39,635 nucleotides of DNA from Nemertoderma westbladi (taxonomy: Eukaryota > Animalia > Xenacoelomorpha), in the NCBI GenBank assembly GCA_032718475.1, contig JAUCBJ010002489.1:1-39635 (forward strand), given 5' to 3'. Of this stretch, positions 1 through 39,635 are shown piece after piece. Made by a program: the position numbers and the translations under genes. The stretch's first letter is position 1, and every line of letters starts with the position of its first letter. The notes under the pieces were generated by a model. The model saw only the letters and a program-made list of their open reading frames with translations, was not told where the DNA came from and did no database searches.

Positions 1-1310
1 TTTCCTAATTGGTCTGTTTCTAAACCAACCTTTCCTGATTGGTCTGTATCCTCACTAACCTTTCCTATTTGGTCTGTTTCTACACAAACCTGTCCTGATT
101 GGTCTGTTTCTACACCAACCTTCCCCGATTGGTCTGTTTCTACACCAACCTTTCCTGATTGGTTTGTTTCTACACTAACCTTTCCTGATTGGTCTGTATC
201 CTCACCAACCTTCCCCGATTGGTCTGTTTCTACACCAACCTTTCCTGATTGGTTTGTTTCTACACTAACCTTTCCTGATTGGTCTGTATCCTCACTAACC
301 TTTCCTAATTGGTCTGTTTCTACACAAACCTGTCATGATTGGTCTGTTTCTACACTAACCTTTCCTGACTGGTCTGTATCCTCACTAACCTTTCCTAATT
401 GGTCTGTTTCTACACAAACCTGTCCTGATTGGTCTGTTTCTAAACTAACCTTTCCTGATTGGTCTGTATCCTCACTAACCTTTCCTAATTGGTCTGTTTC
501 TACACAAACCTGTCCTGATTGGTCTGTTTCTACACCAACCTTCCCCGATTGGTCTGTTTCTACACCAACCTTTCCTGATTGGTTTGTTTCTACACTAACC
601 TTTCCTGATTGGTCTGTATCCTCACTAACCTTTCCTAATTGGTCTGTTTTTACACAAACCTGTCCTGATTGGTCAGATTATACACCAACCTTTCCTGATT
701 GGTCTGTTTCTACACCAACCTTTCCTGATTGGTTTGTTTCTACACTAACATTTCCTGATTGGTCTGTATCCTCACTAACCTTTCCTAATTGGTCTGTTTC
801 TACACCAACCTTTCCTGATTGGTCTGTATCCTCACTAACCTTTCCTAATTGGTCTGTTTCTACACCAACCTTTCCTGATTGGTCTGTATTCTCACTAACC
901 TTTCCAAATTGGTCTGTTTCTACACAAACCTGTCCTGATTGGTCTGTTTCTACACTAACCTTTCCTGATTGGTCTGTATCTTCACTAACCTTTCCTAATT
1001 GGTCTGTTTCTACACAAACCTGTCCTGATTGGTCTGTTTCTACACTAACCTTTCCTGATTGGTCTGTATCCTCACTAACCTTTCCTAATTGGTCTGTTTC
1101 TACACCAACCTTTCCTGATTGGTCTGTATCCTCACTAACCTTTCCTAATTGGTCTGTTTCTACACAAACCTGTCCTGATTGGTCTGTTTCTACAATAACC
1201 TTTCCTGATTGGTCTGTATCCTCACTAACCTTTCCTAATTGGTCTGTTTCTACACAAACCTGTCCTGATTGGTCTGTTTCTACACTAACCTTTCCTGATT
1301 GGTCTGTTTC
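1..1310. repeat. 30-bp minisatellite derived from the exon H/intron junction, about 43 copies, running off the window
   Basis: Plus-strand unit TTTCCTGATTGGTCTGTTTCTACACTAACC. On the gene strand this is GAAACAGACCAATCAGGAAAG|GTTAGTGTA; the last copy is the real exon end. Confidence 0.97.
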
Positions 1311-1873
1311 TTCAACAGACCCTGACAGGACGCCTCGTCTCTCCCCTTCTCATCGCTCATAAAATACAACTCCATCTCGCTCATCCATTGTTCAGCCTCG
1401 TTGGCGTCCTCAAAGTAAGTCTGTGCATCGAAGGACTCTCCGAGCTTCCGGTCGCGATCCCCGATCACCTCGTTCAACTCGTTCCACGCCGTCTCCAACT
1501 GGAAAATCTTCGCGTCAACGAGCTCCGGGTCGCAGAGTTTCTCCTCCGCCAGCTCCCGTCCCGAGTCGCACACCGAGTTGATCCGGGGTTCGTGACACTC
1601 AATATCGTTACGCAGGTTGTTGTTCTTGTTCTGTAGGAGTTGTACCGCAAGCAACGAGTTGCCAACGTCCGGGTTCTCCGCAAGCGGTTTGCGTTCCTCG
1701 ATCCAGAGTAATTCGTCGTCCACATCCCGGAAGAATTGATGGATTCTGAGTTTCTCCTCGAGTTTGCGTCGGCGTTCCTTGAGGGGATCGTCCAACTGCA
1801 CGAATTTGGACTCGACTTCGTTGGATTTTCCGATGGCCTGGACGCAGACCTCCTCTCCGAGGTCGTCAAGGAC
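1290..1873 (-). CDS. SPTBN1-like: Beta-spectrin coding exon H (VLDDLGEE...HQFFRDVDDELLWIEER...EAEQWMSEMELY...LLKKQTNQER)
   Basis: Acceptor CCCTTAG|GTC at 1874 and donor AAG|GTTAGT at 1289. 584 nt. Spectrin repeats resembling beta-spectrin 'HQFNRDVEDEILWVGER' and 'EAEAWMSEQELY'. The gene continues beyond the left window edge. Confidence 0.92.
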
Positions 1874-2405
1874 CTAAGGGAAATAAAAAAAAAATATTAT
1901 AGAAGCTGTTAGTGGAGTAGTAAGTAGTGTAAGTCCGGTTCCTAAACTACAAGTTTAATGCGCACTGTAAGAGAAAAAACAACCCCACGCCCAACGCCCA
2001 CCGCCCCCCCCCCCCCCCCCCCTTCCCTCTAAGACGTTTTTACTTTATTTTACAATGTCTAACCTAAATAAAAAGGAAAGTTTCATCACCGTTGTATTAC
2101 TTTATGAATAACGTCACATTATTACTGTGTCTTGAACTGGTGGGCGGCATAATGACTATTGGGTTTTATACGTATATTTCATAATGTAATAGAATATTTG
2201 CTACCAATAAATTTAATAACTCAAACAACAAAATACAATGTAGTATCTTAAACTATTCTACAGAATGCTTCTTGGATGTACGACAAATGCTAATAGAACA
2301 AAATATTTATATATTACCAAACGTAAAGAATCATTAACAGTATTATCAATTCAATCACCGATCTTACTCAAACTCGAATAAAAACCTACATCGAAAATAT
2401 ATCAA

Positions 2406-5400
2406 ATGAGTTCCCGAACTAAATGAACCAACGTGCGCCATGAGTTCCCTAACTAAATGAACCAACGTGCGCCATGAGTTCCCGAACTAAATGAACCAAC
2501 GTGCGCCATGAGTTACCAAACTAAATGAACCAACGTGCGCCATGAGTTCCCGAACTAAATGAACCAACGTGCGCCATGAGTTACCAAACTAAATGAACCA
2601 ACGTGCGCCATGAGTTCCCGAACTAAATGAACCAACGTGCGCCATGAGTTACCAAACTAAATGAACCAACGTGCGCCATGAGTTCCCTAACTAAATGAAC
2701 CAACGTGCGCCATGAGTTCCCGAACTAAATGAACCAACGTGCGCCATGAGTTCCCGAACTAAATGAACCAACGTGCGCCATGAGTTACCAAACTAAATGA
2801 ACCAACGTGCGCCATGAGTTCCCGAACTAAATGAACCAACGTGCGCCATGAGTTCCCGAACTAAATGAACCAACGTGCGCCATGAGTTACCAAACTAAAT
2901 GAACCAACGTGCGCCATGAGTTACCAAACTAAATGAACCAACGTGCGCCATGAGTTCCCAAACTAAATGAACCAACGTGCGCCATGAGTTCCCTAACTAA
3001 ATGAACCAACGTGCGCCATGAGTTCCCGAACTAAATGAACCAACGTGCGCCATGAGTTCCCGAACTAAATGAACCAACGTGCGCCATGAGTTCCCGAACT
3101 AAATGAACCAACGTGCGCCATGAGTTACCAAACTAAATGAACCAACGTGCGCCATGAGTTCCCGAACTAAATGAACCAACGTGCGCCATGAGTTCCCGAA
3201 CTAAATGAACCAACCTGCGCCATGAGTTCCCGAACTAAATGAACCAACCTGCGCCATGAGTTCCCGAACTAAATGAACCAACGTGCGCCATGAGTTCCCG
3301 AACTAAATGAACCAACGTGCGCCATGAGTTCCCGAACTAAATGAACCAACGTGCGCCATGAGTTCCCTAACTAAATGAACCAACGTGCGCCATGAGTTCC
3401 CGAACTAAATGAACCAACGTGCGCCATGAGTTCCCGAACTAAATGAACCAACATGCGCCATGAGTTCCCTAACTAAATGAACCAACATGCGCCATGAGTT
3501 CCCTAACTAAATGAACCAACGTGCGCCATGAGTTCCCAAACTAAATGAACCAACGTGCGCCATGAGTTCCCGAACTAAATGAACCAACGTGCGCCATGAG
3601 TTCCCGAACTAAATGAACCAACGTGCGCCATGAGTTACCAAACTAAATGAACCAACGTGCGCCATGAGTTCCCGAACTAAATGAACCAACGTGCGCCATG
3701 AGTTCCCAAACTAAATGAACCAACGTGCGCCATGAGTTCCCGAACTAAATGAACCAACGTGCGCCATGAGTTCCCTAACTAAATGAACCAACGTGCGCCA
3801 TGAGTTCCCTAACTAAATGAACCAACGTGCGCCATGAGTTCCCGAACTAAATGAACCAACGTGCGCCATGAGTTACCGAACTAAATGAACCAACCTGCGC
3901 CATGAGTTACCAAACTAAATGAACCAACGTGCGCCATGAGTTCCCGAACTAAATGAACCAACGTGCGCCATGAGTTACCAAACTAAATGAACCAACGTGC
4001 GCCATGAGTTCCCGAACTAAATGAACCAACGTGCGCCATGAGTTCCCTAACTAAATGAACCAACGTGCGCCATGAGTTCCCTAACTAAATGAACCAACGT
4101 GCGCCATGAGTTCCCTAACTAAATGAACCAACGTGCGCCATGAGTTACCAAACTAAATGAACCAACGTGCGCCATGAGTTCCCGAACTAAATGAACCAAC
4201 GTGCGCCATGAGTTACCAAACTAAATGAACCAACGTGCGCCATGAGTTCCCGAACTAAATGAACCAACGTGCGCCATGAGTTCCCAAACTAAATGAACCA
4301 ACGTGCGCCATGAGTTCCCAAACTAAATGAACCAACGTGCGCCATGAGTTCCCTAACTAAATGAACCAACGTGCGCCATGAGTTCCCTAACTAAATGAAC
4401 CAACGTGCGCCATGAGTTCCCGAACTAAATGAACCAACGTGCGCCATGAGTTACCAAACTAAATGAACCAACGTGCGCCATGAGTTCCCGAACTAAATGA
4501 ACCAACGTGCGCCATGAGTTCCCGAACTAAATGAACCAACGTGCGCCATGAGTTCCCGAACTAAATGAACCAACGTGCGCCATGAGTTCCCAAACTAAAT
4601 GAACCAACGTGCGCCATGAGTTCCCGAACTAAATGAACCAACCTGCGCCATGAGTTCCCAAACTAAATGAACCAACGTGCGCCATGAGTTACCAAACTAA
4701 ATGAACCAACGTGCGCCATGAGTTACCAAACTAAATGAACCAACGTGCGCCATGAGTTCCCGAACTAAATGAACCAACCTGCGCCATGAGTTCCCGAACT
4801 AAATGAACCAACGTGCGCCATGAGTTACCAAACTAAATGAACCAACGTGCGCCATGAGTTACCAAACTAAATGAACCAACGTGCGCCATGAGTTCCCAAA
4901 CTAAATGAACCAACGTGCGCCATGAGTTACCAAACTAAATGAACCAACGTGCGCCATGAGTTACCAAACTAAATGAACCAACGTGCGCCATGAGTTCCCT
5001 AACTAAATGAACCAACGTGCGCCATGAGTTCCCGAACTAAATGAACCAACCTGCGCCATGAGTTCCCGAACTAAATGAACCAACGTGCGCCATGAGTTAC
5101 CAAACTAAATGAACCAACGTGCGCCATGAGTTCCCTAACTAAATGAACCAACGTGCGCCATGAGTTCCCGAACTAAATGAACCAACGTGCGCCATGAGTT
5201 CCCGAACTAAATGAACCAACCTGCGCCATGAGTTACCAAACTAAATGAACCAACGTGCGCCATGAGTTCCCGAACTAAATGAACCAACATGCGCCATGAG
5301 TTCCCGAACTAAATGAACCAACCTGCGCCATGAGTTACCAAACTAAATGAACCAACGTGCGCCATGAGTTACCAAACTAAATGAACCACCGTGCGCCATG

Positions 5401-8400
5401 AGTTCCCTAACTAAATGAACCAACCTGCGCCATGAGTTCCCGAACTAAATGAACCAACGTGCGCCATGAGTTTCCGAACTAAATGAACCAACGTGCGCCA
5501 TGAGTTCCCGAACTAAATGAACCAACCTGCGCCATGAGTTCCCGAACTAAATGAACCAACGTGCGCCATGAGTTACCAAACTAAATGAACCAACGTGCGC
5601 CATGAGTTCCCTAACTAAATGAACCAACCTGCGCCATGAGTTCCCGAACTAAATGAACCAACCTGCGCCATGAGTTCCCGAACTAAATGAACCAACGTGC
5701 GCCATGAGTTACCAAACTAAATGAACCAACGTGCGCCATGAGTTACCAAACTAAATGAACCACCGTGCGCCATGAGTTCCCGAACTAAATGAACCAACGT
5801 GTGCCATGAGTACCCGAACTAAATGAACCAACGTGCGCCATGAGTTCCCAAACTAAATGAACCAACGTGCGCCATGAGTTCCCGAACTAAATGAACCAAC
5901 GTGCGCCATGAGTTCCCAAACTAAATGAACCAACGTGCGCCATGAGTTCCCGAACTAAATGAACCAACGTGCGCCATGAGTTCCCTAACTAAATGAACCA
6001 ACGTGCGCCATGAGTTACCAAACTAAATGAACCAACGTGCGCCATGAGTTCCCGAACTAAATGAACCAACCTGCGCCATGAGTTACCAAACTAAATGAAC
6101 CAACGTGCGCCATGAGTTCCCGAACTAAATGAACCAACGTGCGCCATGAGTTCCCTAACTAAATGAACCAACGTGCGCCATGAGTTCCCTAACTAAATGA
6201 ACCAACCTGCGCCATGAGTTACCAAACTAAATGAACCAACGTGCGCCATGAGTTACCAAACTAAATGAACCAACCTGCGCCATGAGTTCCCTAACTAAAT
6301 GAACCAACCTGCGCCATGAGTTCCCGAACTAAATGAACCAACGTGGGCCATGAGTTCCCGAACTAAATGAACCAACCTGCGCCATGAGTTACCAAACTAA
6401 ATGAACCAACGTGCGCCATGAGTTCCCTAACTAAATGAACCAACCTGCGCCATGAGTTCCCGAACTAAATGAACCAACGTGGGCCATGAGTTCCCGAACT
6501 AAATGAACCAACCTGCGCCATGAGTTACCAAACTAAATGAACCAACGTGCGCCATGAGTTACCAAACTAAATGAACCAACGTGCGCCATGAGTTCCCAAA
6601 CTAAATGAACCAACGTGCGCCATGAGTTCCCGAACTAAATGAACCAACGTGCGCCATGAGTTCCCTAACTAAATGAACCAACGTGTGCCATGAGTTACCA
6701 AACTAAATGAACCAACGTGCGCCATGAGTTCCCTAACTAAATGAACCAACGTGCGCCATGAGTTCCCGAACTAAATGAACCAACGTGCGCCATGAGTTCC
6801 CGAACTAAATGAACCAACCTGCGCCATGAGTTACCAAACTAAATGAACCAACGTGCGCCATGAGTTCCCGAACTAAATGAACCAACGTGCGCCATGAGTT
6901 CCCGAACTAAATGAACCAACCTGCGCCATGAGTTACCAAACTAAATGAACCAACGTGCGCCATGAGTTACCAAACTAAATGAACCACCGTGTGCCATGAG
7001 TTCCCTAACTAAATGAACCAACCTGCGCCATGAGTTCCCGAACTAAATGAACCAACGTGCGCCATGAGTTTCCGAACTAAATGAACCAACGTGCGCCATG
7101 AGTTCCCGAACTAAATGAACCAACCTGCGCCATGAGTTCCCGAACTAAATGAACCAACGTGCACCATGAGTTACCAAACTAAATGAACCAACGTGCGCCA
7201 TGAGTTCCCTAACTAAATGAACCAACCTGCGCCATGAGTTCCCGAACTAAATGAACCAACCTGCGCCATGAGTTCCCGAACTAAATGAACCAACGTGCGC
7301 CATGAGTTACCAAACTAAATGAACCAACGTGCGCCATGAGTTACCAAACTAAATGAACCACCGTGCGCCATGAGTTCCCGAACTAAATGAACCAACGTGT
7401 GCCATGAGTACCCGAACTAAATGAACCAACGTGCGCCATGAGTTCCCAAACTAAATGAACCAACATGCGCCATGAGTTCCCGAACTAAATGAACCAACGT
7501 GCGCCATGAGTTCCCAAACTAAATGAACCAACGTGCGCCATGAGTTCCCGAACTAAATGAACCAACGTGCGCCATGAGTTCCCGAACTAAATGAACCAAC
7601 GTGCGCCATGAGTTACCAAACTAAATGAACCAACGTGCGCCATGAGTTCCCGAACTAAATGAACCAACCTGCGCCATGAGTTACCAAACTAAATGAACCA
7701 ACGTGCGCCATGAGTTCCCGAACTAAATGAACCAACGTGCGCCATGAGTTCCCTAACTAAATGAACCAACGTGCGCCATGAGTTCCCTAACTAAATGAAC
7801 CAACCTGCGCCATGAGTTACCAAACTAAATGAACCAACGTGCGCCATGAGTTACCAAACTAAATGAACCAACCTGCGCCATGAGTTCCCGAACTAAATGA
7901 ACCAACGTGCGCCATGAGATACCGAACTAAATGAACCAACGTGCGCCATGAGTTACCAAACTAAATGAACCAACGTGCGCCATGAGTTCCCTAACTAAAT
8001 GAACCAACCTGCGCCATGAGTTACCAAACTAAATGAACCAACGTGCGCCATATGAGTTCCCGAACTAAATGAACCAACGTGTGCCATGAGTACCCGAACT
8101 AAATGAACCAACGTGCGCCATGAGTTCCCAAACTAAATGAACCAACGTGCGCCATGAGTTCCCGAACTAAATGAACCAACGTGCGCCATGAGTTCCCAAA
8201 CTAAATGAACCAACGTGCGCCATGAGTTCCCGAACTAAATGAACCAACGTGCGCCATGAGTTCCCTAACTAAATGAACCAACGTGTGCCATGAGTACCCG
8301 AACTAAATGAACCAACGTGCGCCATGAGTTCCCAAACTAAATGAACCAACGTGCGCCATGAGTTCCCGAACTAAATGAACCAACGTGCGCCATGAGTTCC

Positions 8401-10835
8401 CAAACTAAATGAACCAACGTGCGCCATGAGTTCCCGAACTAAATGAACCAACGTGCGCCATGAGTTCCCTAACTAAATGAACCAACGTGCGCCATGAGTT
8501 ACCAAACTAAATGAACCAACGTGCGCCATGAGTTCCCGAACTAAATGAACCAACCTGCGCCATGAGTTACCAAACTAAATGAACCAACGTGCGCCATGAG
8601 TTCCCGAACTAAATGAACCAACGTGCGCCATGAGTTCCCTAACTAAATGAACCAACGTGCGCCATGAGTTCCCTAACTAAATGAACCAACCTGCGCCATG
8701 AGTTACCAAACTAAATGAACCAACGTGCGCCATGAGTTACCAAACTAAATGAACCAACCTGCGCCATGAGTTCCCGAACTAAATGAACCAACGTGCGCCA
8801 TGAGATACCGAACTAAATGAACCAACAACGTGCGCCATGAGTTACCAAACTAAATGAACCAACGTGCGCCATGAGTTCCCTAACTAAATGAACCAACCTG
8901 CGCCATGAGTTACCAAACTAAATGAACCAACGTGCGCCATGAGTTCCCTAACTAAATGAACCAACGTGCGCCATGAGTTACCAAACTAAATGAACCAACG
9001 TGCGCCATGAGTTCCCGAACTAAATGAACCAACCTGCGCCATGAGTTACCAAACTAAATGAACCAACGTGCGCCATGAGTTCCCGAACTAAATGAACCAA
9101 CGTGCGCCATGAGTTACCAAACTAAATGAACCAACCTGCGCCATGAGTTCCCGAACTAAATGAACCAACGTGCGCCATGAGATACCGAACTAAATGAACC
9201 AACATGCGCCATGAGTTCCCGAACTAAATAAACCAAAGTGCACCATGAGTTCCCGAACTAAATGAACCAACATGCGCCATGAGTTCCCTAACTAAATAAA
9301 CCAACGTGCGCCATGAGTTCCCTAACTAAATGAACCTACGTGCGCCATGAGATACCGAACTAAATGAACCAACGTGCGCCATGAGATACCGAACTAAATG
9401 AACCAACGTGCGCCATGAGTTCCCGAACTAAATGAACCAACGTGCGCCATGAGATACCGAACTAAATGAACCAACGTGCGCCATGAGTTCCCGAACTAAA
9501 TGAACCAACATGCGCCATGAGTTCCCGAACTATATGAACCAATGTGCGCCATGAGTTCCCGAACTAAATGAACCAACGTGCGCCATGAGATACCGAACTA
9601 AATGAACCAACCTGCGCCATGAGTTCCCGAACTAAATGAACCAACGTGCGCCATGAGATACCGAACTAAATGAACCAACGTGCGCCATGAGTTCCCGAAC
9701 TAAATAAACCAAAGTGCACCATGAGTTCCCGAACTAAATGAACCAACATGCGCCATGAGTTCCCGAACTAAATGAACCAACGTGCGCCATGAGATACCGA
9801 ACTAAATGAACCAAAGTGCACCATGAGTTCCCTAACTAAATGAACCAACCTGCGCCATGAGTTCCCGAACTAAATGAACCAACGTGCGCCATGAGTTCCC
9901 GAACTAAATGATCCAACGTGCGCCATGAGTTCCCGAACTAAATAAACCAACGTGCGCCATGAGTTGCCGAACTAAATGAACCAACGTGCGCCATGAGTTC
10001 CCGAACTAAATGAACCAACGTGCGCCATGAGTTACCAAACTAAATGAACCAACATGCGCCATGAGTTCCCGAACTAAATGAACCAACGTGCGCCATGAGA
10101 TACCGAACTAAATGAACCAACGTGCGCCATGAGTTCCCTAACTAAATGAACCAACGTGCGCCATGAGTTCCCGAACTAAATGAACCTACGTGCGCCATGA
10201 GTTCCCTAACTAAATGAACCAACCTGCGCCATGAGTTACCGAACTAAATGAACCAACGTGCGCCATGAGTTCCCGAACTAAATGATCCAACGTGCGCCAT
10301 GAGTTCCCGAACTAAATAAACCAACGTGCGCCATGTGTTGCCGAACTAAATGAACCAACGTGCGCCATGAGTTCCCGAACTAAATGAACCAACGTGCGCC
10401 ATGAGTTCCCGAACTAAATGAACCAACGTGCGCCATGAGTTACCAAACTAAATGAACCAACATGCGCCATGAGTTCCCGAACTAAATGAACCAACGTGCG
10501 CCATGATATACCGAACTAAATGAACCAACCTGCGACATGAGTTCCCGAACTAAATGAACCAACGTGCGCCATGAGTTCCCGAACTAAATGAACCAACGTG
10601 CGCCATGAGTTACCAAACTAAATGAACCAACATGCGCCATGAGTTCCCGAACTAAATGAACCAACCTGCGACATATGTTCCCGAACTAAATGAACCAACG
10701 TGCGCCATGAGTTCCCGAACTAAATGAACCAACCTGCGCCTGTCCATGCAGTTCCCGAACTAAATGAACCTACGTGCGCCATGAGTTCCCGAACTAAATG
10801 AACCAACCTGCGCCTGTCCATGAAGTTCCCGAACT
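2406..10835. repeat. 34-bp minisatellite derived from the exon G/intron junction, about 248 copies (8.4 kb)
   Basis: Plus-strand unit ATGAGTTCCCGAACTAAATGAACCAACGTGCGCC. On the gene strand this is GGCGCAC|GTTGGTTCATTTAGTTCGGGAACTCAT, a 6-nt-deleted copy of the exon end plus donor. Confidence 0.97.
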
Positions 10836-11188
10836 TGATGCTGCCGAACTACCAACTGATCCTCGTAAATCTTCTGCTTCTGCAACTCGAGATTAACCGT
10901 AGTTAAGTTGGTGGTGGTGTCTTCCACAGTGAGCTGTTTCTCGAGATCAGTCATCCAGGTATCTATATCGTCCACGGTCTGGTTAAACAACGTCTCCTTA
11001 TTGGCGTCGAATAGTTTCTGCCCCTTAGCCCGAGTGGCCGCATCCAACTCATCGAATTCCACGCGGATTCTATCCATTTCCTCTCCGACCATCTCAGCGG
11101 AATCCGGTCTCTCTTCCGCTATGGCGTCGGCTTTCTTCTGTAGAGCGTCGATTCTGGCTCGATTGGCTTGGATCTCCGCTTCAAACGC
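10808..11188 (-). CDS. SPTBN1-like: Beta-spectrin coding exon G (AFEAEIQANR...KGQKLFDANK...RELHGQAQ)
   Basis: Acceptor TTTTTAG|GCG and donor CAG|GTTGGT. 381 nt. Continues KHQ|AFEAE and contains 'LFDANK'. Confidence 0.92.
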
Positions 11189-11358
11189 CTAAAAAATTAT
11201 TTCTTATTAACATAATGCAAGTGATTAATTAAATTAAAAATACATTAAATTAAATTAACATAAATAAGTCATTAACATAAAAGTGTTGGAAATTCTTTCC
11301 ACGGACTTATTATTATAACTTTCGTTGGAAACATATTTTAGCAAATTCGGCAATGACG

Positions 11359-11427
11359 TCTAGGTGGGATCGAACCGGTGACTTCCATGTTCGAAGTCTG
11401 GAGCTTTAACAATTCCGCTAGCGGCTC
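11359..11427 (-). mobile_element. tRNA-derived SINE head or tRNA pseudogene within an intron
   Basis: The minus strand reads GAGCCGC-TAGCGGAATTG (A-box-like)...GACTTCGAAC...GGTTCGATCC (B-box)-CACCTAGA with tRNA-like spacing. The acceptor stem is poor. Confidence 0.6.
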
Positions 11428-11629
11428 AGACGGTAGACATGGAAAAACTACCTGATATTATATTGTATGGCCGCAATTTACGTTTGGGAGGACGTGATGA
11501 TATAACGTAGTCAATGATATCAAAGTTCCAGATCTACATTCTATATCTGAGACACTAGCAGAATAGTACAACCAAAACACCAATATATTTTAGCTGACAC
11601 ATGGTTACGCGATCACTGATTAACTGTAC

Positions 11630-11833
11630 CTGGTGTTTCTGCCATTTGGTCTGGAGATTCCTCGCGTCCGCCATCGAGTCGTCCGTTGCTGTCAGCATCT
11701 TCTCATTGATCCACAGATGGGTATCCTCCCCCTCCTCCAACCAACTGTGGACGATCAGACTCTCTCTCAGCACGCTGAGAATCCGCTCCGCCTCCGAGCG
11801 GTTTTGGTTCCTACGCGCCTCCAATTCCTCCAC
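11630..11833 (-). CDS. SPTBN1-like: Beta-spectrin coding exon F (VEELEARRNQNR...WINEKMLTA...ARNLQTKWQKHQ)
   Basis: Acceptor GTTTAG|GTG and donor CAG|GTACAG. 204 nt. 'WINEKMLTA...ARNL..KW.KHQ' is a beta-spectrin motif. Confidence 0.93.
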
Positions 11834-12077
11834 CTAAACGGAATAAGATTACAAGGAACTCGATAGAAATCAGAACCAGTAAATGGGGATATGGATACAG
11901 TGATACATACAGTGTTTAAAATTAAAACAATAAGTTTAGTATCATAAATCAATTTAGTTTTATACTATATATAAGGTGATGGATATTATATTGCTGATGG
12001 AAATAATGGTGATGGATATAAGGTGGAGGTTTGGGTTAGTTTTATATACTTGGGGTTTGGTCGTATGATTTACTCAC

Positions 12078-12263
12078 CTTGGCCCGAATCCGATCCTCGT
12101 AAATATGTTTATCTTCGATTAAACTCCTACCGAACCCGATGACGCTGTTTATCTTCTGGTCGTTGGCGTCCAGCGTTGCTAGGTAATCATCGTATAACTT
12201 TATCTGTTCGTTGGTTTTAACTAAAGTGCTGGGCGCTTCTGATCCCTTACTGAGGAAGTTGTC
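12078..12263 (-). CDS. SPTBN1-like: Beta-spectrin coding exon E (DNFLSKGSEAPSTL...ATLDANDQKINSVIGFGRSLI...DRIRAK)
   Basis: Not in the ORF track; translated by hand. Acceptor TCATTAG|GAC and donor AAG|GTGAGT. 186 nt, open frame, spectrin-repeat-like. Confidence 0.9.
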
Positions 12264-12416
12264 CTAATGAAATAATAACAAAATATTGTGGATTAAAAAT
12301 AATTTAGATTAATAAAGGACATATTAACAACGTGCGGTGTGAAGGTATAAAATATATTAAATTACTATTAAAGTTTTGTTAATTATGTATTCAAGGTAGG
12401 ACTTAATTAATCTTAC

Positions 12417-12599
12417 CTGTCGGTTTAGTAACACGTCAGCCTGTTTGGCGTCCCGAACAAACAATTCGTAGCTGTGAGATTGACCGAGGAACTGTTGTCT
12501 GTTGTTCCACATTGAGCCCAAATCGTTCCACCCCTTGTCCAACCCATCCAATCGCTGCTTTAGGAACACGTATTGTGTGTCATCCTGGCCTTCTGTGAC
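12417..12599 (-). CDS. SPTBN1-like: Beta-spectrin coding exon D (VTEGQDDTQYVFLKQRLDGLDKGW...DVLLNRQ)
   Basis: Acceptor TTCACAG|GTC and donor CAG|GTAAGA. 183 nt, phase 0/0. Resembles beta-spectrin 'VTQGQTDAQYMFLRQRL'. Confidence 0.93.
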
Positions 12600-12677
12600 C
12601 TGTGAAAATTTAATAATCACCATGGAGGTCAGAAAATGATTAATTTATTAGGAACCCCAACGAAATTTTCCAACAGA

Positions 12678-15380
12678 TGTCCCACTAGGCTGCACTAACA
12701 ACTCACCCCCTTACCTTGTGTCCCACTAGGCTACACTAACAACTCACCCCCTTACCTTGTGTCCCACTAGGCTACACTAACAACTCACCCCCTTACCTTG
12801 TGTCCCACTAGGCTGCACTAACAACTCACCCCCTTACCTTGTGTCCCACTAGGCTACACTAACAACTCACCCCCTTACCTTGTGTCCCACTAGGCTACAC
12901 TAACAACTCATCCCCTTACCTTGTGTCCCACTAGGCTGCACTAACAACTCATCCCCTTACCTTGTGTCCCACTAGGCTGCACTAACAACTCATCCCCTTA
13001 CCTTGTGTCCCAGTAGGCTGCACTAACAACTCATCCCCTTACCTTGTGTCCCACTAGGCTGCACTAACAACTCATCCCCTTACCTTGTGTCCCACTAGGC
13101 TGCACTAACAACTCATCCCATTACCTTGTGTCCCACTAGGCTACACTAACAACTCACCCCCTTACCTTGTGTCCCACTAGGCTACACTAACAACTCACCC
13201 CCTTACCTTGTGTCCCACTAGGCTGCACTAACAACTCATCCCATTACCTTGTGTCCCACTAGGCTGCACTAACAACTCATCCCCTTACCTTGTGTCCCAC
13301 TAGGCTACACTAACAACTCATCCCCTTACCTTGTGTCCCACTAGGCTCCACTAACAACTCATCCCCTTTCCTTGTGTCCCACTAGGCTACACTAACAACT
13401 CATCCCCTTACCTTGTGTCCCACTAGGCTGCACTAACAACTCATCCCCTTACCTTGTGTCCCACTAGGCTGCACTAACAACTCATCCCCTTACCTTGTGT
13501 CCCACTAGGCTACACTAACAACTCACCCCCTTACCTTGTGTCCCACTAGGCTGCACTAACAACTCATCCCCTTACCTTGTGTCCCACTAGGCTGCACTAA
13601 CAACTCATCACCTTACCTTGTGTCCCACTAGGCTACACTAACAACTCATCCCCTTACCTTGTGTCCCACTAGGCTGCACTAACAACTCATCCCCTTACCT
13701 TGTGTCCCATTAGGCTGCACTAACAACTCATCCCCTTACCTTGTGTCCCATTAGGCTACACTAACAACTCATCCCCTTACCTTGTGTCCCACTAGGCTGC
13801 ACTAACAACTCACCCCCTTAACTTGTGTCCCACTAGGCTACACTAACCCACCCCCTTAACTTGTGTCCCACTAGGCTACACTAACAACTCATCCCCTTAC
13901 CTTGTGTCCAACTAGGCTACACTAACAACTCATCCCCTTACCTTGTGTCCCACTAGGCTGCACTAACAACTCATCCCCTTACTTTGTGTCCCACTAGGCT
14001 GCACTAACAACTCATCCCCTTACCTTGTGTCCCACTAGGCTGCACTAACAACTCACCCACTTAACTTGTGTCCCACTAGGCTGCACTAACCCACCCCCTT
14101 AACTTGTGTCCCACTAGGCTACACTAACAACTCATCCCCTTACCTTGTGTCCCACTAGGCTGCACTAACAACTCATCCCCTTACCTTGTGTCTTACTAGG
14201 CTACACTAACAACTCATCCCCTTACCTTGTGTCCCACTAGGCTGCACTAACAACTCACCCACTTAACTTGTGTCCCACTAGGCTGCACTAACCCACCCCC
14301 TTAACTTGTGTCCCACTAGGCTACACTAACAACTCATCCCCTTACCTTGTGTCCCACTAGGCTACACTAACAACTCATCCCCTTACCTTGTGTCCCACTG
14401 GGTTACACTAACAACTCATCCCCTTACCTTGTGTCCCACTGGGCTGCACTAACAACTCATCCCCTTACCTTGTGTCCCACTAGGCTGCACTAACAACTCA
14501 TCCCCTTACCTTGTGTCCCACTAGGCTGCACTATAACCCACCCCCTTAACTTGTGTCCCACTAGGCTGCACTAACAACTCATCCTCTTACCTTGTGTCCC
14601 ACTAGGCTGCACTAACAACTCATCCCCTTACCTTGTGTCCCACTAGGCTGCACTAACAACTCATTCCCTTACCTTGTGTCCCACTGGGCTGCACTAACAA
14701 CTCATCCCCTTACCTTGTGTCCCACTGGGCAGCACTATCAACTCATCCCCCTACCTTGTGCCCCACTGGGCTACACTAACAACTCATCCCCTTACTTTGT
14801 GTCCCACTGGGCTGCACTAACAACTCATCCCCCTACCTTGTGTCCCACTGGGCTGCACTAACAACTCATCCCCTTACCTTGTGTCCCACTAGGCTGCACT
14901 AACAACTCATCCCCTTACCTTGTGTCCCACTGGGCTGCACTAACAACTCATCCCCTTACCTTGTGTCCCACTAGGCTGCACTAACAACTCATCCCCTTAC
15001 CTTGTGTCCCACTGGGCTGCACTAACAACTCATCCCCCTACCTTGTGCCCCACTGGGCTACACTAACAACTCATCCCCTTTCCTTGTGTCCCACTAGGCT
15101 ACACTAACAACTCATCCCCTTACCTTGTGTCCCACTAGGCTGCACTAACAACTCATCCCCTTACCTTGTGTCCCACTGGGTTACACTAACAACTCATCCC
15201 CTTACCTTGTGTCCCACTGGGCTGCACTAACAACTCATCCCCTTACCTTGTGTCCCACTAGGCTGCACTAACAACTCATCCCCTTACCTTGTGTCCCATT
15301 AGGCTGCACTAAAAACTCATCCCCTTACCTTGTGTCCCACTAGGCTGCACTAACAACTCATCCCCTTACCTTGTGTCCCA
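12678..15380. repeat. 41-bp minisatellite derived from the exon C/intron junction, about 66 copies
   Basis: Gene-strand unit TGGGACACAAG|GTAAGGGGATGAGTTGTTAGTG(C/T)AGCCTAG, i.e. 11 nt exon plus 30 nt intron. A few copies are shorter. Confidence 0.97.
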
Positions 15381-15575
15381 TATCCATCATTTTATCGAAG
15401 TCATCAGCATAACCATCGATATTTTCCTTGATATGAATGTTGCTGGCGAGGAGTTCCTCGGCCTCCTGTAGATTCTCCGGCATGTCAGCGGAAGCCACCT
15501 TGGTGGTGGTGTCTGTCAACCACTTCTGGAAATCGTCTAGGTCTCGAAGGAACCGCTGCAGGTTGCCGGACTCGC
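15370..15575 (-). CDS. SPTBN1-like: Beta-spectrin coding exon C (ESGNLQRFLRDLDDFQKWL...MMDMGHK)
   Basis: Not in the ORF track; translated by hand. Acceptor CTTCTAG|GC (phase 1, matches exon B) and donor AAG|GTAAGG. 206 nt. 'LQxFLRDLDDFQxWL' is a beta-spectrin motif. Confidence 0.92.
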
Positions 15576-15873: not shown

Positions 15874-16111
15874 CTAGAGCGGCGTCTCTGTCCTTTAGCG
15901 TAGCTCGCAACTCGATCCAGGTGTCGGTGATGTCATCGAACTTGTGCCGGATATCTTCCGACAACTCGGGATGTTCGGCCCCGATCTGCCCCGCATCCTT
16001 CTGTAACGCGTCCAACTTGGTCTGGATCGAGGCGACGTCCCGTTCCATCCCGGTGAGACGGCGTTGCAACGCGATCACACCGGACAAATCGTTCCCGAGA
16101 TCCTCTGTCTC
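15874..16111 (-). CDS. SPTBN1-like: Beta-spectrin coding exon B (ETEDLGNDLSGVIALQRRLTGMERD...DRDAALG)
   Basis: Acceptor TTTGTAG|GAG and donor CTAG|GTAAGG. 238 nt. 'DLGNDLxGVxALQRxLTGMERD' is characteristic of beta-spectrin. Confidence 0.93.
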
Positions 16112-16398: not shown

Positions 16399-16624
16399 CT
16401 TTATAATTCTCGTCTTCTCCTTTATCCAAGAGGAAGTTTCTGTGCACTCGATGATATAACTCTTGAACTTGTAAGTGGCGTTGATGTTCTTGAGTTTCAT
16501 GTCGGCATTTCGTTTGAGTTTGTCCCAGCGGTCGTTGAGTCGTTGTTGTCTGGCTTCTATCTCGTCACTGTTTGGATGCGGGATGTTTAGGAGCTGACGA
16601 CTCAAATCGTTAACAGTCTCCACC
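16399..16624 (-). CDS. SPTBN1-like: Beta-spectrin coding exon A (first exon in window; ..RVETVNDLSRQLL...TSSWIKEKTRIIK)
   Basis: Acceptor TTTTCAG|G at 16625 and donor AAG|GTCAGT at 16398. 226 nt, entering in phase 2. The translation is a spectrin repeat resembling beta-spectrin 'RVAVVNQIARQL...WIREKTKVIE'. Confidence 0.9.
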
Positions 16625-17280
16625 CTGAAAACATACCGGCATCAGAGTTAATCTAATGTAATAACGTTTATATTTCACTTTTATCAGTGTTGTAAACTGC
16701 ACTTTATTGCGGAGAGAACCATCAATCAAGTCATAAACAAAAGTTAAATTGATATTTATGTTTGTTTGTTTGTATGTTTGTTCCGGTATGGCCCCGGTGC
16801 TTTATTATTATGGATAATGAAAGAAATAACAGAAAACATACACACAACATGGATTATATAATTACTATATCAAACTGAGTACATTATGGTAATCCTAGTA
16901 TTATTATTTCAGTAGAATAAAGTTATGGTGGAATATTATGGTTGAGGACCGCTGCAAAGCTTTAGGGGTAATGCTATATGTTATGTTGGACAATAAACCA
17001 TATTATTTGGTGTATTTGATATTGTTTTTATAACAAGTTATCTATTTTCAATAAATCTGCGTGTAACACGGAACAAAATGGCTATCATAAACATTTAATT
17101 AATTTCAAAGGAATAAAAATAACAATTTTCTTTGAATTTATGGATTAACAGATTGCTTTGCTATTGGCCCTTCTTGCAAACTATAATAATAATTGAACTG
17201 CCTGACTGCCTGCATGAATTTATTTTTAATGATTTATTTTATTTATACTGAGTTGTTAACAAAAAAGGCGAAAGTTCAAG

Positions 17281-18282
17281 ATGGCGGAAATCAAAGAAAC
17301 AATGGAGATGTGTCGGAAAATGAACACTGCACGCCTTAAATCATTTTTAGCGAAACACGAAGTACCATCTACTGGACGCCGAGCTGAACTACTGACCCGT
17401 GCGGATCGGCTTATTATTAACGGTGTCGTATCTCTGGATTCTGTTGTCCCGGTCGACTCCTTAGTGGACCCCGCTGTCATTCCCGAGACGAAGGTGGTAA
17501 ACACTCCAGAGTATACCACCCTAATCCTGGAGGCAAACTCGCCGGAGAATCCCGCCGTAATCCCGGAGGCGTTGGAGGTAAACTCGCTGGAGGATCCCGC
17601 CCTAATCTCGGAGATGACGGAGTTAAACTCGCTGGAGAATCCCGCCCTAATCCCGCAGGCAACAGAGGTAAACTCCCCGGAGTATCCCGCCCTAATCCCG
17701 GAGGCGATGGAGGTTAACTCCCTGGAAGATCACGGCCTAATCCCGGAGGTGATGGAGGTAAACTCCCCGGAGGATCCCACCCTAATCCCGGAGGTGACGG
17801 AGTTAAACTCGCTGGAGAATCCCGCCCTAATCCCGGAGGCAACAGAGGTAAACTCCCCGAAGTATCCCGCCCTAATCCCAGTGGCGACGGAGGTAAGCTC
17901 CCCAGAGGATCCCACTCTAATCCCTGAGGCGACGGAGGTAAACTCCCCGAATGATCCCGCCCAAATCCCTCCATTTGCTTCAGTTACTTGTAATTCGGTT
18001 CTAATAGAGGACTTACAAGATGATGGCTCTTGGAAACCCCGTAAGTCTAGCAGGAAGATCACTGATTTCTTCAGAAAAACCACTGCTATAGTCTCTGATC
18101 CCATGGAATCTTTGCTGGATCCTGGTGCCAAATTATTCAATCCTATGAATCCAATACCTGTACTCCAGTCCAAGCAAGGAGACTCTGATGATGTTCAGTA
18201 TGTTGGATGTTACCATCACAATCCCAGTACTGGTACTACTGGTGAACATAACAAATTCTACCCAGATCTAGAACTATTATGA
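17281..18282 (+). CDS. LINE ORF1 N-terminal part: SAP-like domain plus acidic/proline 20-aa repeats
   Basis: MNTARLKSFLAKHEVPSTGRRAELLTRA fits the SAP pattern (L+..L...gl..sG.+aeL..R). It is followed by about 8 copies of EVNSPEDPALIPEATE-like units. Confidence 0.65.
   Translation: MAEIKETMEMCRKMNTARLKSFLAKHEVPSTGRRAELLTRADRLIINGVVSLDSVVPVDSLVDPAVIPETKVVNTPEYTTLILEANSPENPAVIPEALEVNSLEDPALISEMTELNSLENPALIPQATEVNSPEYPALIPEAMEVNSLEDHGLIPEVMEVNSPEDPTLIPEVTELNSLENPALIPEATEVNSPKYPALIPVATEVSSPEDPTLIPEATEVNSPNDPAQIPPFASVTCNSVLIEDLQDDGSWKPRKSSRKITDFFRKTTAIVSDPMESLLDPGAKLFNPMNPIPVLQSKQGDSDDVQYVGCYHHNPSTGTTGEHNKFYPDLELL
17460..17970 (+). repeat. 60-bp coding tandem repeat, about 8 copies
   Basis: GAGGTAAACTCCCCGGAGGATCCCGCCCTAATCCCGGAGG-like units recur with a 60-nt period, in frame. 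Confidence 0.9.
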
Positions 18283-20560
18283 CGAAGAACGTGTGAAAGA
18301 CGCAATTTTTAATACAAACATTCGCAAAGGACTGGTGCTTTTAAAGCCAAGTGATCCTGACTGGAGGTACTTCCAACCTGGTCAGAATTTAACAACAACG
18401 GTAGTGGACTCCTTCCTCTCATTACTGGGTGTTCAAGGTGGAAACAGAATTGGCTGTATTGACACCGCTTTGTGCAGTAAATTGCATCAGAACAACTTTG
18501 ATACTGCCAGTGCCATTAAGTATATTGCATCCTCTTGCGACATTGGCACCACATCACTTATATTCTTCCCTGATTGTCACAAAGATCACTTTGTTCTACA
18601 CATTGCAGATCTAAAGCAACATTCTGTCCATACCCTGTGTAGTCTTAGCCAGTTTACGGAACCAACTACCATCACAAAACGTATATGTTATCTTTTAAAC
18701 CTAATTGATCACATAGCGCGGGGAGTACCTACTGCGTGGTCAACTGTGTCGCATGCTAATCCCTTTCCGCTCCAGAGACCTGGGAGTAACGACTGTGGCA
18801 TATTTGTATGTCTATATGCCCTTGCCCTCTGCAGTGACTTTCAATTAACTCAGGATGTCTGTTCTGGTGATATCAGACATTGGTTACACAGTTGTATTTC
18901 CAATATCAAGCTATATGACCCTAACTCTCTAGAGCCTTTCCTGTACACATTGCAGGATGATCATCGACCACATTGCACAAGCAAAGATGCAGGTATGGTA
19001 ACACAAACTCATTCGGCAGGCCTCAAGAAGGACATTGGGAAGTTCCCTCGGTACACCATAACAGATTTCACCCACCTGTCAAATAAATCAAGAAAGGCAG
19101 TTATGAAAAAACTTGAAACATTTGGGACTTGCAAACTAAACCTCCTAAGAGAAGCTATGTTTCAGGAGGTTAAAGCCCTAGCAAACCCCAATCAATCCGT
19201 CAGCCTGGCATTCCCTGCACGTCAGAACGACAGGGACTATGCAGTGGACGTGTATGAACTCATGATTTGTCTGAAAGAAACAAGATTCACGGAGAAATGC
19301 CGCAAGCGTCTCAAGTACACCTCCATAGATATGGGTGGGCCAGTATCGAACGATGTCCTCCGTCATGACCTTATAAAGTCAGTAGATACTTTGCAAGCTC
19401 GACTTACCAAAACAGAATTTCAGAACGATCAACTGCAGATTGAGTTGAAGAAGTTGCGAGATGATCTGGCACATGAGCGGCACTCACGGCTCATTCTAGA
19501 GGCTTCTATCAACAAACAGACTAAACTGGAACATCTTCCCGGAAGTCCCTTACAGTCAGCCGACTGTGACGAACCCACTAATCAAATAACCGAAAACACA
19601 TGGTTTGAACAGAAAGCAAAAAAGCCAACCACAACTGCTATATCCACTAGCAACCGTTTCAAAGGTCTACCAGTTGAGTATACACACCCCAGGCAGGGAC
19701 GGCTGAACTCAGTGAAGACAACGCCTAACACTGTCGATCCAACATGTCATTCATATAGGGAAAATAGCGACCGGAGAAAGGGAAATCCAAATACTCATAT
19801 GAAGAAATACTCCAAGGCGCTGAATTTTCAAGTTGAGCCTAGAGATAAAAACACACACGAACGTCAGCCAGTAAGCCAGAAGAAGCTGTCAGTTCCAAGA
19901 CACCAGCGTGTTGATTACCCTTATTCATATCTATATGTCAGTGGACTTCCTCAACATACAAGCGAATCGCAAATCCGTAACTACTTGTCCAGCAGGGAAA
20001 TCATGGTACACCGAATCAGATGGATAGTAAAGTTTCGTCAATCCAATAGCATACGCATAACCGTAAACAAGACGGATCAAAATCGTCTTTGTAATGCTAA
20101 TTTCTGGCCAAGTGGAAGTAAATGCTGTGAGTGGACAACCAATAAGAGGACTAATCAAGGCCTAGCAACACCGAACTGTGGAGCTAACTATGGGCCCACT
20201 CAATACTGGGATCAAAACTATATTATTAGTAATGGGTTACAAGGGTCAAACTCAAGGTCGATACATACTGTGCCCTATGACTATGCATATTGGAGTTCCC
20301 AGTTCAACTTGGATCCACAAGACCCCAATATTAAGGACTCACGCTGTCACCTAAGAAATGGGTTGCCCCACGATTATGCGCACAGGAATTCCAAACTTAA
20401 TTTGCAACAATCTCGGCTATTCCAGCACATAGAAGCTCCAATGTTTGACTGCAAACTCGCTGATCATGGTAGATACCCCCAATGGCCTTATCCAAACTTC
20501 GAATATCGCAATCACAAAAACATCCGCACTAAGGACAAAGCGTACCTGAACCATTTTTGA
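18272..20560 (+). CDS. LINE ORF1 main part: Ulp1/SENP-like (peptidase C48-type) domain, coiled coil, RRM
   Basis: FQPGQNLTTTVVDSFLSLL...IFFPDCHKDHFVLHIAD...PLQRPGSNDCGIFVCLYA follows the Ulp1 pattern. There is a heptad segment DLIKSVDTLQARL...LRDDL, an SNRF motif, and LYVSGLPQHTSESQIRNYL...FWPSG (the RRM typical of LINE ORF1). The frame is open from 18272 with no ATG near its start. Confidence 0.75.
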   Translation, partial: NYYDEERVKDAIFNTNIRKGLVLLKPSDPDWRYFQPGQNLTTTVVDSFLSLLGVQGGNRIGCIDTALCSKLHQNNFDTASAIKYIASSCDIGTTSLIFFPDCHKDHFVLHIADLKQHSVHTLCSLSQFTEPTTITKRICYLLNLIDHIARGVPTAWSTVSHANPFPLQRPGSNDCGIFVCLYALALCSDFQLTQDVCSGDIRHWLHSCISNIKLYDPNSLEPFLYTLQDDHRPHCTSKDAGMVTQTHSAGLKKDIGKFPRYTITDFTHLSNKSRKAVMKKLETFGTCKLNLLREAMFQEVKALANPNQSVSLAFPARQNDRDYAVDVYELMICLKETRFTEKCRKRLKYTSIDMGGPVSNDVLRHDLIKSVDTLQARLTKTEFQNDQLQIELKKLRDDLAHERHSRLILEASINKQTKLEHLPGSPLQSADCDEPTNQITENTWFEQKAKKPTTTAISTSNRFKGLPVEYTHPRQGRLNSVKTTPNTVDPTCHSYRENSDRRKGNPNTHMKKYSKALNFQVEPRDKNTHERQPVSQKKLSVPRHQRVDYPYSYLYVSGLPQHTSESQIRNYLSSREIMVHRIRWIVKFRQSNSIRITVNKTDQNRLCNANFWPSGSKCCEWTTNKRTNQGLATPNCGANYGPTQYWDQNYIISNGLQGSNSRSIHTVPYDYAYWSSQFNLDPQDPNIKDSRCHLRNGLPHDYAHRNSKLNLQQSRLFQHIEAPMFDCKLADHGRYPQWPYPNFEYRNHKNIRTKDKAYLNHF

Positions 20561-20612
20561 CCCACCCCTCCAGCAATCTCATCACCCTAGGCACCCCTAT
20601 AAACTAAATAAT

Positions 20613-22004: not shown

Positions 22005-23129
22005 ATCGCTTTTTAGCCTATGACAAGTATTTGATTCACTACACTAGTCGAAACCAATCCATGCGCGACCATTCACCCGCTGGATATTCCCGGGAGATTG
22101 GGTTCGACGGTTTAATTTTGTTGCTATGTAAGCCTAATGTATTATTCGACTGACAGTATTATATAATCTCTGACAATATTATTTACCTTCGGGAATATTA
22201 ACAGTTCCTTTAGGACGTGGCGCTTTATCTATATAAACAGAGTTATGACTTAAACTACTCACAACGATATGGCTTAATTATAATTCACATATATGGCGCA
22301 TTCTTTAGGAATGCTTCTTTAACAGACTCACTCATACACAATGCTGCACAATACTGCACACTAATCTGCCGATCTTCACTGATTTTAGTCACATATAAAA
22401 GGAACACAGACTGACTCATGTAGGGTCTATCAAATAACATTAGATTCACTTCAAACCACTTTAACATAAGTCACAATCGTTTATCTGTAACCTTTCTCTC
22501 TTACCTTCGGTATATCAAGAATATTGGGTTTCGGGGTTATTTCTCGTTATTCCAAATATAATAATTCATCAACAAATATAATGAATAACCGACAACAAAT
22601 AGCAGTATGCAATATTCTCAAAGCCAGTTATGCAGTACTGCAGTATGCAGTGATTACGAAATTGCAGAGTGTTTGTTTCGTCAGTTAAAAGATATATGTC
22701 CTTGTAATTAAACCTACTAGTGTTGAGCTAAAAAGCATAAAACATAAAACACTAAAAGCCGTTCTTTCGTGGCTTTGAAAAACTCGTGACTACTGCTCTA
22801 TACGAGTATACCAACCACTCTTATTCCACGAAGCTCCCGTTCAACACAGAGAAAGAGCAGTGAGATAGGAAATTTTCAGTTCAGTACTCTGTGATTGGTC
22901 AAAATCAAGGCTAACTCAAAATTCTATTGGGAGATACAAAAACAAGGCTATGACGCAACCTCCCTAGGCTTGTTGGCCGATTAAACAGAGCCCAGATGCC
23001 TGCGTACAGCAAATCAGCCAATAAGCTGGTAACTTGCACTATTTTTAGCTGTAGATCACTTTGAGAGTATTCTTAGCGACTGGGGGGGAACTGGCCAACA
23101 AGGCAAACGAATCAGTTATCCCACAAAAG

Positions 23130-26537: not shown

Positions 26538-28664
<2,127 letters not shown>

Positions 28665-29517: not shown

Positions 29518-29530
29518 ATTTTTTATTATT

Positions 29531-34184: not shown

Positions 34185-39635
<5,451 letters not shown>

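Follow-up and report, generated by a model that had tools for sequence, protein, structure and literature searches.

Minisatellites that span exon-intron boundaries

Tandem repeats built of units that cross an exon-intron boundary are already on record in other animals. In lancelets, where they are known as mirages, they occur in Adh3, the globin genes BflGb6 and BflGb9, troponin C and PGBD5, and genes with several mirages recur (PMC3087553, PMC3902484); duplication affects the 5' as well as the 3' boundaries there, BflGb6 being an acceptor-side example, and the generating mechanism is called unclear (PMC3087553). In humans, donor-spanning minisatellites are listed for F7 intron 7 (a 37-bp VNTR), 6-16 intron 2, CBS intron 13, LMNB2 and PDGF intron 4. 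Experiments on F7 showed that the most upstream donor is used and that the pseudo-donors do not compete with it, while in 6-16 and CBS the next two copies are used as well (all PMC1557585). Related structures are the internal tandem repeats at intron boundaries of PMC2812944 and the introns gained, in the Rogers model as cited in PMC3087553, when AG/GT proto-splice sites are duplicated in tandem; passages of PMC11887611 and PMC10078293 do not treat junction-spanning units. Given these precedents, an earlier sequence-only reading of the locus, which knew of no named system matching its arrays, has to be amended: mirages and the five human minisatellites were in print (PMC3087553, PMC3902484, PMC1557585), and the repeat type reported here is one already described.

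Three arrays at donors of a predicted beta-spectrin gene

The locus lies in a window of 39,635 nucleotides from Nemertoderma westbladi (assembly GCA_032718475.1, contig JAUCBJ010002489.1, positions 1 to 39,635). Gene reconstruction in the window gave eight exons on the minus strand, here called A to H, all with an AG acceptor and a GT donor, and one of the three frames of this model is stop-free over 735 amino acids. Upstream of exon A (16399-16624) lies an intron of 23 kb or more, and tblastn with three homologues found no exon past 16700; exon B (15874-16111) was placed by frame and consensus. Contigs of two runs, X4 and X5, which we take to be RNA because they skip introns, bear on the following exons: in X5 there is a 153-nt skip at exon D (12417-12599), joints at exon E (12078-12263), and skips of 441 and 244 nt at exon F (11630-11833). 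Exons A, B, D, E and F are all free of junction repeats. The arrays belong to exons C (15370-15575, 206 nt), G (10808-11188, 381 nt) and H (1290-1873, 584 nt), whose genuine donors follow positions 15370 (phase 0), 10808 (phase 0) and 1290 (phase 2).

Pfam places spectrin repeats in exons G and H. The best collinear protein matches have 37-49% identity and are spectrin beta wherever named, against 28-31% for alpha-type matches; exon H aligns to residues 1464-1639 of a PDB beta chain, and by summed scores an alpha chain ranks top. As the collinear repeats match the beta rather than the alpha chain, the host gene is, judging by its sequence, a beta-spectrin gene. Neither ARAGORN, run on the whole window, nor Rfam, run on 10815-12677, returned a match.

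The three arrays are unrelated to one another. Array H (1..1311, minus strand) consists of at least 43 copies of a 30-bp unit, made of the last 22 nt of the exon and the first 8 nt of the intron, and runs off the edge of the window; it shows higher-order periods of 90 and 150 bp. Array G (2406..10835, minus strand) has 246 units and a founder of 40 bp (28 exonic and 12 intronic), which is kept only beside the donor; 243 units belong to a derived 34-bp form. Array C (12678..15380, minus strand) has 66 units of 41 bp (11 exonic and 30 intronic), the last of them partial, and 17 are identical to the founder. Unit lengths of 30, 34 and 41 bp had been given before; the first and the last stand, whereas 34 bp describes the derived form of array G. 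Likewise, the arrays had been said to begin exactly at the 5' splice site: they do span the donor, but they start 11-28 nt inside the exon rather than at the GT. All extra copies are intronic, in keeping with the claim that the arrays extend only into the intron, and intronic array bases add up to 12,383 bp over the three arrays, which bears out the load of more than 12 kb.

A junction-spanning tandem-copy score, computed for all 16 splice sites, was 251 at donor C, 77 at donor G and 121 at donor H. None of the remaining 13 sites scored above 6, with 300 random intronic positions as a control giving a median of 5 and a maximum of 20. Arrays thus sit at three of eight donors and at none of eight acceptors, as the sequence-only reading had counted. 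The three units resemble neither one another nor the rest of the window, except for one 11-nt chance match (E 0.78), and their independent origin is upheld; a shared satellite family was rejected. The ends of exons C and G align without gaps to beta-spectrin homologues right up to the donor, while homologue alignments of exon H end 4-5 residues before it. Since the exon ends align in this way at C and G, the array must have been derived from an ancestral exon, and exonisation of an older repeat was rejected, the units being absent elsewhere in the window.

As three head-to-tail arrays that hold the exon-intron boundary of their host (-22/+8 at H, -28/+12 at G and -11/+30 at C), they belong with the mirages, or exon-edge minisatellites. 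They share with those of lancelets a boundary-spanning tandem unit, a splice signal retained in many of the copies though not in every one, normal splicing that is unaffected, and edge units that escape homogenisation, and their unit lengths fall within the 10-72 bp given for lancelet Adh3. Unlike BflGb6 with its 3-6 units, they comprise 43 or more, 66 and 246 units, and in this window they occupy the donor side only, whereas lancelets have both sides affected. With the human F7 group they have in common a first unit that spans the donor, a donor reiterated along the intron and use of the most upstream donor; the human genes carry one array each with 5 to about 25 copies, compared with three arrays and up to 246 copies in a single gene here. 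Taken as a single locus, it represents a known type of repeat at an unusually large size.

Tandem units with splice signals at an exon-intron boundary are also reminiscent of the Rogers-type gain and of PMC2812944, but the introns of this gene are not made by their arrays. Beyond the array, 78 nt of unique sequence remain in the intron between C and D and 532 nt in that between G and H, each with its own acceptor, and Rogers-type intron gain was rejected on account of this unique sequence and the normal acceptors beyond arrays C and G (the end of H lies outside the window). With their arrays, these two introns measure 2.8 kb instead of about 0.1 kb and 8.9 kb instead of about 0.5 kb, respectively.

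Presence of the arrays in reads and use of the first donor

One rival explanation is that the arrays are a product of assembly. Array lengths are given as assembled, with read support from short-read contigs only. Contigs of the units, however, occur far above single-copy depth in DNA runs of two studies, X1 of study P1 and X2 and X3 of study P2. For array G, unit contigs in X1 have a depth of 523-547 against 36 for single-copy sequence (summed contig depth is not a copy number); unit contigs of array H were found in X1 and X3, and joints that step back by 41 bp, as in array C, in X1 and X2. Donor-flanking contigs that run into the repeat are present in runs of both studies, and the units are diversified, with 21, 39 and 29 distinct variants in the three arrays. 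No array-free allele appeared among the loose ends listed, which carries no weight because contigs reveal only what is present. X1 may be the source data of the window. An artefact can scarcely account for these observations, and the existence of the arrays is upheld.

The spliced contigs document which donor is taken. In X5, a contig of 7,417 nt (depth 170) uses the first donor at all three sites: it passes from the unique end of exon C to exon D, from the end of exon G to exon H, and leaves exon H at 1290 for the next exon. In X4, a contig of 1,290 nt (depth 94) uses it at the one site that it covers, joining exon G to exon H. Regular splicing is thus undisturbed by the arrays, in that the dominant contigs take the first genuine donor; these contigs are the dominant forms only, rare ones being dropped in assembly and hidden by decay, so that later donors may be used at a low level.

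This choice is made in the presence of a large number of alternatives. The arrays had been said to create hundreds of donor-like sites, which holds for the GT itself, kept at 335 of 352 unit junctions, but only 136 keep G|GT, and a 9-mer identical to the true donor is found in 108 (19 of 42 in H, 41 of 245 in G and 48 of 65 in C). In array G, the G at -1 is lost in 179 of 245 junctions, and the commonest variant of this largest array carries a weakened donor. None of the 335 downstream GT sites is in frame and stop-free by computation, each giving a stop or a frameshift. Use of the next copies, as described for 6-16 and CBS in PMC1557585, would therefore be unproductive here, and those two human genes speak against complete silence of such arrays. 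This cytoskeletal gene puts up with 42 to 237 decoy donors in an intron, which extends the first-donor result of F7, obtained with 4-8 decoys (PMC1557585), more than 10-fold and to another animal. Both the spliced contigs and these F7 experiments support the suggestion that junction-spanning copies are tolerated when they leave the first donor intact.

One could imagine instead that the arrays are functional, with decoy donors diverting part of the transcript to decay and copy number tuning the level of beta-spectrin. Retention of the exact donor 9-mer in 108 copies and the unproductive nature of all later donors would suit such a role. We regard it as very improbable: it is the first donor that appears in the dominant contigs of both studies, the donor is weakened in the commonest variant of the largest array, and the pseudo-donors of F7 do not compete (PMC1557585).

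Origin and growth of the arrays

In our judgment, these are probably three independent mirage minisatellites whose first donor is spliced, that arose by ordinary DNA tandem duplication and that likely persist almost silently. The founding event would have been a duplication of 30-41 bp across the donor, probably through slippage or repair where short matches occur. Array C ends distally in a 7-bp word (12678..12684, minus strand) identical to the one with which the unit starts in exon C (15374-15380); the match itself is observed, and it is likely the microhomology of the founding duplication. It is found at one of the two distal ends in view, none being recoverable at G, and array H continues past the edge of the window. 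Exon and donor remain intact in the upstream copy, which puts the additional copies into the intron. Growth and turnover would then have proceeded by unequal exchange or slippage, and the pattern left behind is visible in array G, where the derived 34-bp variant has swept the array, the founder form remains at the edge, and a block of 14 units is duplicated 73 units apart (the longest repeated run of unit variants, 14, compares with a maximum of 7 in 200 shuffles). Arrays H and C show no block duplication above shuffles, which, together with microhomology at a single distal end, counts against this account. The spliceosome would choose the donor that lies furthest upstream, as experiments on human F7 tested and as seen here in the dominant contigs, and transcripts from later donors would, as computed from their stops and frameshifts, likely be removed by nonsense-mediated decay.

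Templates of spliced RNA (cDNA, lariat or back-splice circle) were rejected as a source. The units contain the unspliced junction rather than exon-exon junctions, and neither a lariat nor spliced cDNA nor a back-spliced circle fits them because the joins lie at different offsets, 8-30 nt into the intron and 11-28 nt into the exon, with none at the splice cut.

A possible donor bias and its proposed causes

The presence of three arrays in one gene is the weakest step of the duplication account; it likely reflects a repeat-prone genome in which long arrays are somewhat over-represented at the edges of exons, together with the choice of an extreme window. Unrelated tandem repeats abound in the window, with 29 TRF rows. 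Under uniform placement, finding all three long arrays of the compact gene part at donors has a probability of about 7e-4, and finding at least 3 of 14-16 seeds at donors, with the upstream intron and short repeats counted, one of about 1e-3, both from a crude model applied post hoc to this window. Acceptors have no long array, and neither do the seven complete introns in their 2,075 collapsed bases. Local clustering at donors thus exceeds uniform placement. Selection by itself does not account for a preference of donors over the interior of introns: it only removes arrays and cannot raise donor-spanning seeds above those inside introns, which again tells against the duplication account.

It is possible, if somewhat doubtful, that there is no edge bias and that we are looking at a chance extreme picked from a very large survey of repeat-rich genomes. 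The window was chosen for showing the pattern, and the chance rises to 0.13-0.17 if 14-16 seeds are confined to the compact region, an unrealistic pairing given that most of the short repeats belong to the upstream intron. With realistic pairings the chance is 1e-3 or less, however, and genes with several mirages recur in lancelets (PMC3087553, PMC3902484).

The sequence-only reading had proposed a generator targeted to donors and acting during transcription, in which breaks, R-loops or an RNA-templated step are tied to U1 or to Pol II pausing at 5' splice sites. The clustering just described would be expected from it, every join lies within 30 nt of a donor, and all five human cases are of the donor type, although PMC1557585 is a paper about donors. 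The difference between donors and acceptors is nonetheless non-significant (Fisher p=0.2 two-sided, 0.1 one-sided), acceptor-side mirages exist (BflGb6; PMC3087553), the joins vary in offset, and the 7-bp DNA microhomology at C is what ordinary slippage would leave. A stronger U1 match at the seeded donors was rejected, each matching the U1-complementary consensus at 7 of 9 positions and the other donors at 6-8. Such a generator is thus not supported and, on our assessment, improbable, though the clustering at donors keeps it from being refuted.

A further, unlikely route is recombination biased toward exon edges in a polymorphic genome, with strand invasion between alleles holding in the conserved exon and failing at the divergent intron; re-annealing out of register would then start or enlarge repeats at both edges, and selection would prune acceptors more. 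This would account for the excess over intron interiors that selection cannot explain. Between X3 and the window there are 29 differences in about 3 kb, 6 of 1,516 in exons (0.40%) and 23 of 1,448 in introns (1.59%; p=0.001), with the indels that were listed falling in introns; the units have a GC content of 41-51%, against 32% for array-free introns. Higher intron polymorphism holds for nearly any gene, however, and permits the process rather than showing it; the comparison covers one haplotype pair, and no paper proposing or testing the idea was found among titles and abstract starts.

We put forward only tentatively that a mutational bias causes minisatellites to be seeded or expanded in this genome with a preference for exon edges, through recombination stalling where a conserved exon gives way to a polymorphic intron or a co-transcriptional lesion just past the donor. 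At the level of literature listings, with most subscription journals outside coverage, no genome-wide test of donors versus acceptors versus intron interiors was found. If the bias were true, mirages would offer introns a general way to expand on the scale of the genome, and would naturally assay the choice of the first donor against as many as 237 decoys. A genome-wide count with a real excess at exon edges would make the locus matter more, the mechanism being called unclear in PMC3087553.

Three arrays at the donors of a beta-spectrin gene

The minus-strand gene in the window comprises eight exons, from A (16399-16624) to H (1290-1873), each with a pyrimidine-rich AG acceptor and a GT donor. 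Joined in order, they yield a single stop-free frame of 735 aa, with 32 stops in each other frame; Pfam spectrin repeats lie in exons G and H, and the best collinear matches among the 159 fetched proteins compared are 37-49% identical, those with names being spectrin beta chains. Since no further beta-spectrin exon was found across 16625-39635, the intron upstream of exon A spans at least 23 kb, whereas the four introns lacking arrays measure 0.15-0.44 kb.

Using Tandem Repeats Finder and then cutting the arrays into units, we located three minus-strand minisatellites contributing 12,383 bp. Array H (1-1311; period 30) has units of 22 exon and 8 intron nt, 43 of which precede the window end; array G (2406-10814 by Tandem Repeats Finder; period 34) has 246 units, whose 28 exon and 12 intron nt are shortened to a 34-bp form in 243; and array C (12678-15380; period 41) has 66 units of 11 exon and 30 intron nt. 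A search of all 16 splice sites returned junction-spanning tandem copies at the donors of exons C, G, and H only (scores 77-251), with the other 13 sites scoring at most 6 against a background maximum of 20 at 300 positions. The sequence-only reading had thus described the arrays accurately, as exon end plus intron start repeated at three donors. GT is kept at 335 of the 352 unit junctions, and the true donor 9-mer is repeated at 108. Within array G (2406-10807), the G at donor position -1 is missing from the most frequent variants (179 of 245), a pattern that drift or selection against decoys could each produce; arrays H and C mostly keep this G. Every unit also carries TAG at or beside the join of its intron part to the exon copy, so that units could be read, from sequence and possibly by chance, as a 10-, 14-, or 30-nt pseudo-intron plus a micro-exon. 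The TAG-bearing piece of the array G unit resembles the true acceptors of the gene.

Arrays in genomic DNA and donor choice in transcripts

The stretch is contained in five of the six listed sequencing runs, which come from three studies. The single-copy contig stops just within the first repeat past donor G in each of the DNA-type runs (X1, X2, and X3), and short unit contigs stand far above single-copy depth (523-547 versus 36 in X1). Joints going back 41 bases are present in X1 and X2; units of array H, as well as the distal terminus of array G, were seen in X1 and X3. The window may itself derive from the X1 sample; X3 stems from another study and represents another haplotype. Arrays C, G, and H exist in genomic DNA, with lengths given as assembled. 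Between haplotypes, the introns show several indels, and at 1967-2033 (intron G-H) a C-rich 67-bp stretch is swapped for 15 other bases in X3.

Two further runs, X4 and X5, carry the label "DNA?" even though their contigs skip introns. A 7,417-nt contig of X5 skips introns of 441, 244, and 153 nt at GT-AG ends, and its loose ends join the unique end of exon C to exon D and the genuine end of exon G to exon H, and place a new exon immediately after position 1290, the exon H donor. A contig of X4 shows the identical G-H join. Because these contigs join genuine exon ends to the next exons, the first donor is used, at the contig level, at all three array sites in X5 and at the one represented in X4. 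By computation, splicing at any of the 335 downstream GT sites would fail to give an in-frame, stop-free product. Nonsense-mediated decay would conceal transcripts from such unproductive donors, and contigs lose rare forms, so that the donor counts reflect dominant transcripts and some minor use of downstream donors may occur.

Known relatives, origin, and turnover

The sequence-only reading knew of no named system matching this structure, yet the lancelet accounts of "mirages" do match it (PMC3087553, PMC3902484). These minisatellite-like duplications of exon-intron boundaries were named in the globin genes and Adh3, with Adh3 units of 10-72 bp, and they affect both 5' and 3' boundaries while splicing remains normal; the generating mechanism is there termed unclear (PMC3087553). 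Troponin C and PGBD5 are additional mirage genes (PMC3902484). Minisatellites whose first unit spans the donor are also described for human F7, 6-16, CBS, LMNB2, and PDGF, and in 50 constructs the most upstream donor won through oriented scanning (PMC1557585). The beta-spectrin arrays are real and new members of an already known kind, of which they form an unusually large example.

At donors C and G, the exon ends align without gaps with homologues up to the donor; therefore, the exon predates the repeat. The duplication joins fall within the intron and within the exon, at offsets that differ among arrays and never at the splice cut, and we rejected a spliced cDNA, lariat, or back-spliced circle as template because none of these fits such joins. 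The distal end of array C is a 7-bp word identical to the unit start within exon C. Haber and Louis reportedly modeled slippage between short direct repeats, for which a terminal short match is the expected signature, and the 7-bp word would be such a signature. Array G terminates 15 nt into the exon copy of its unit, probably following a small deletion, and thus offers no microhomology at its founding join; the distal end of array H lies outside the window, and its founding join is out of view. A variant lacking 6 nt has swept array G, where only the second unit retains the full-length form. This array also contains a series of 14 unit variants that reappears at a distance of 73 units, versus a maximum of 7 in 200 shuffles; the same analysis revealed no recurring run that stands out in arrays H and C. 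Later growth thus looks like ordinary minisatellite turnover. Taken together, the best-supported account, and in our view a probable one, is that a tandem duplication across the donor by an ordinary process would found each array, normal repeat turnover would then amplify it, and first-donor choice would make it tolerated.

Clustering at exon edges

The sequence-only reading had favored a donor-specific, co-transcriptional repeat generator. However, arrays at three of eight donors versus none of eight acceptors differ at only p=0.2, and the three seeded donors match the U1-complementary consensus no more closely than do the five others, making such a generator unlikely. Relative to intron interiors, a uniform-placement model puts the probability that all three long arrays of the compact gene part fall at donors at approximately 7e-4, and that of at least 3 of 14-16 seeds, with the upstream intron included, at approximately 1e-3. 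The placement model is a crude one, and the donor-array pattern was itself the reason for picking the window from a very large scan. Selection only removes arrays, so tolerance leaves any excess relative to intron interiors unexplained; such an excess, if real, requires a bias in array birth or growth. Some mutational bias towards exon edges is conceivable, if doubtful, and constitutes the sole ground for further interest in the locus. One candidate cause is recombination failing at the border between conserved exon and divergent intron: X3 and the window differ at 0.40% of exon bases (6/1,516) and 1.59% of intron bases (23/1,448), a gap that permits the idea without demonstrating it.

Other repeats and elements

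The upstream intron holds a decayed non-LTR retrotransposon (17260-24150, plus strand, antisense to the gene). One of its ORFs contains a 45-bp coding repeat and weakly matches SAP; an endonuclease ORF and a fragment of a reverse transcriptase are also present. A further ORF, of 762 aa, has no Pfam match; a short cysteine motif in it is suggestive of Ulp1-type proteases. A second reverse-transcriptase-like fragment was recognized by eye at 29221-29532. In intron F-G, a very high-copy short element (11338-11440) reaches a summed contig depth of approximately 47,000-123,000 versus 6-36 alongside in the DNA runs; by eye it looks like a tRNA-derived SINE, and neither ARAGORN (whole window) nor Rfam (10815-12677) returned a match for it. 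An inverted repeat at 30154-30452 resembles a MITE; its 84-nt arms are 93% complementary and flank a 23-bp triple repeat. Two diverged copies of an approximately 350-bp segment (32263-32600 and 33495-33860) lie 1.23 kb apart. Finally, long (GCAC)n tracts at 26538-28662 and 34185-39635 are part of a larger repeat unit that also includes an approximately 400-bp unique spacer and an 84-bp doublet, and form a microsatellite-containing higher-order array running off the window.
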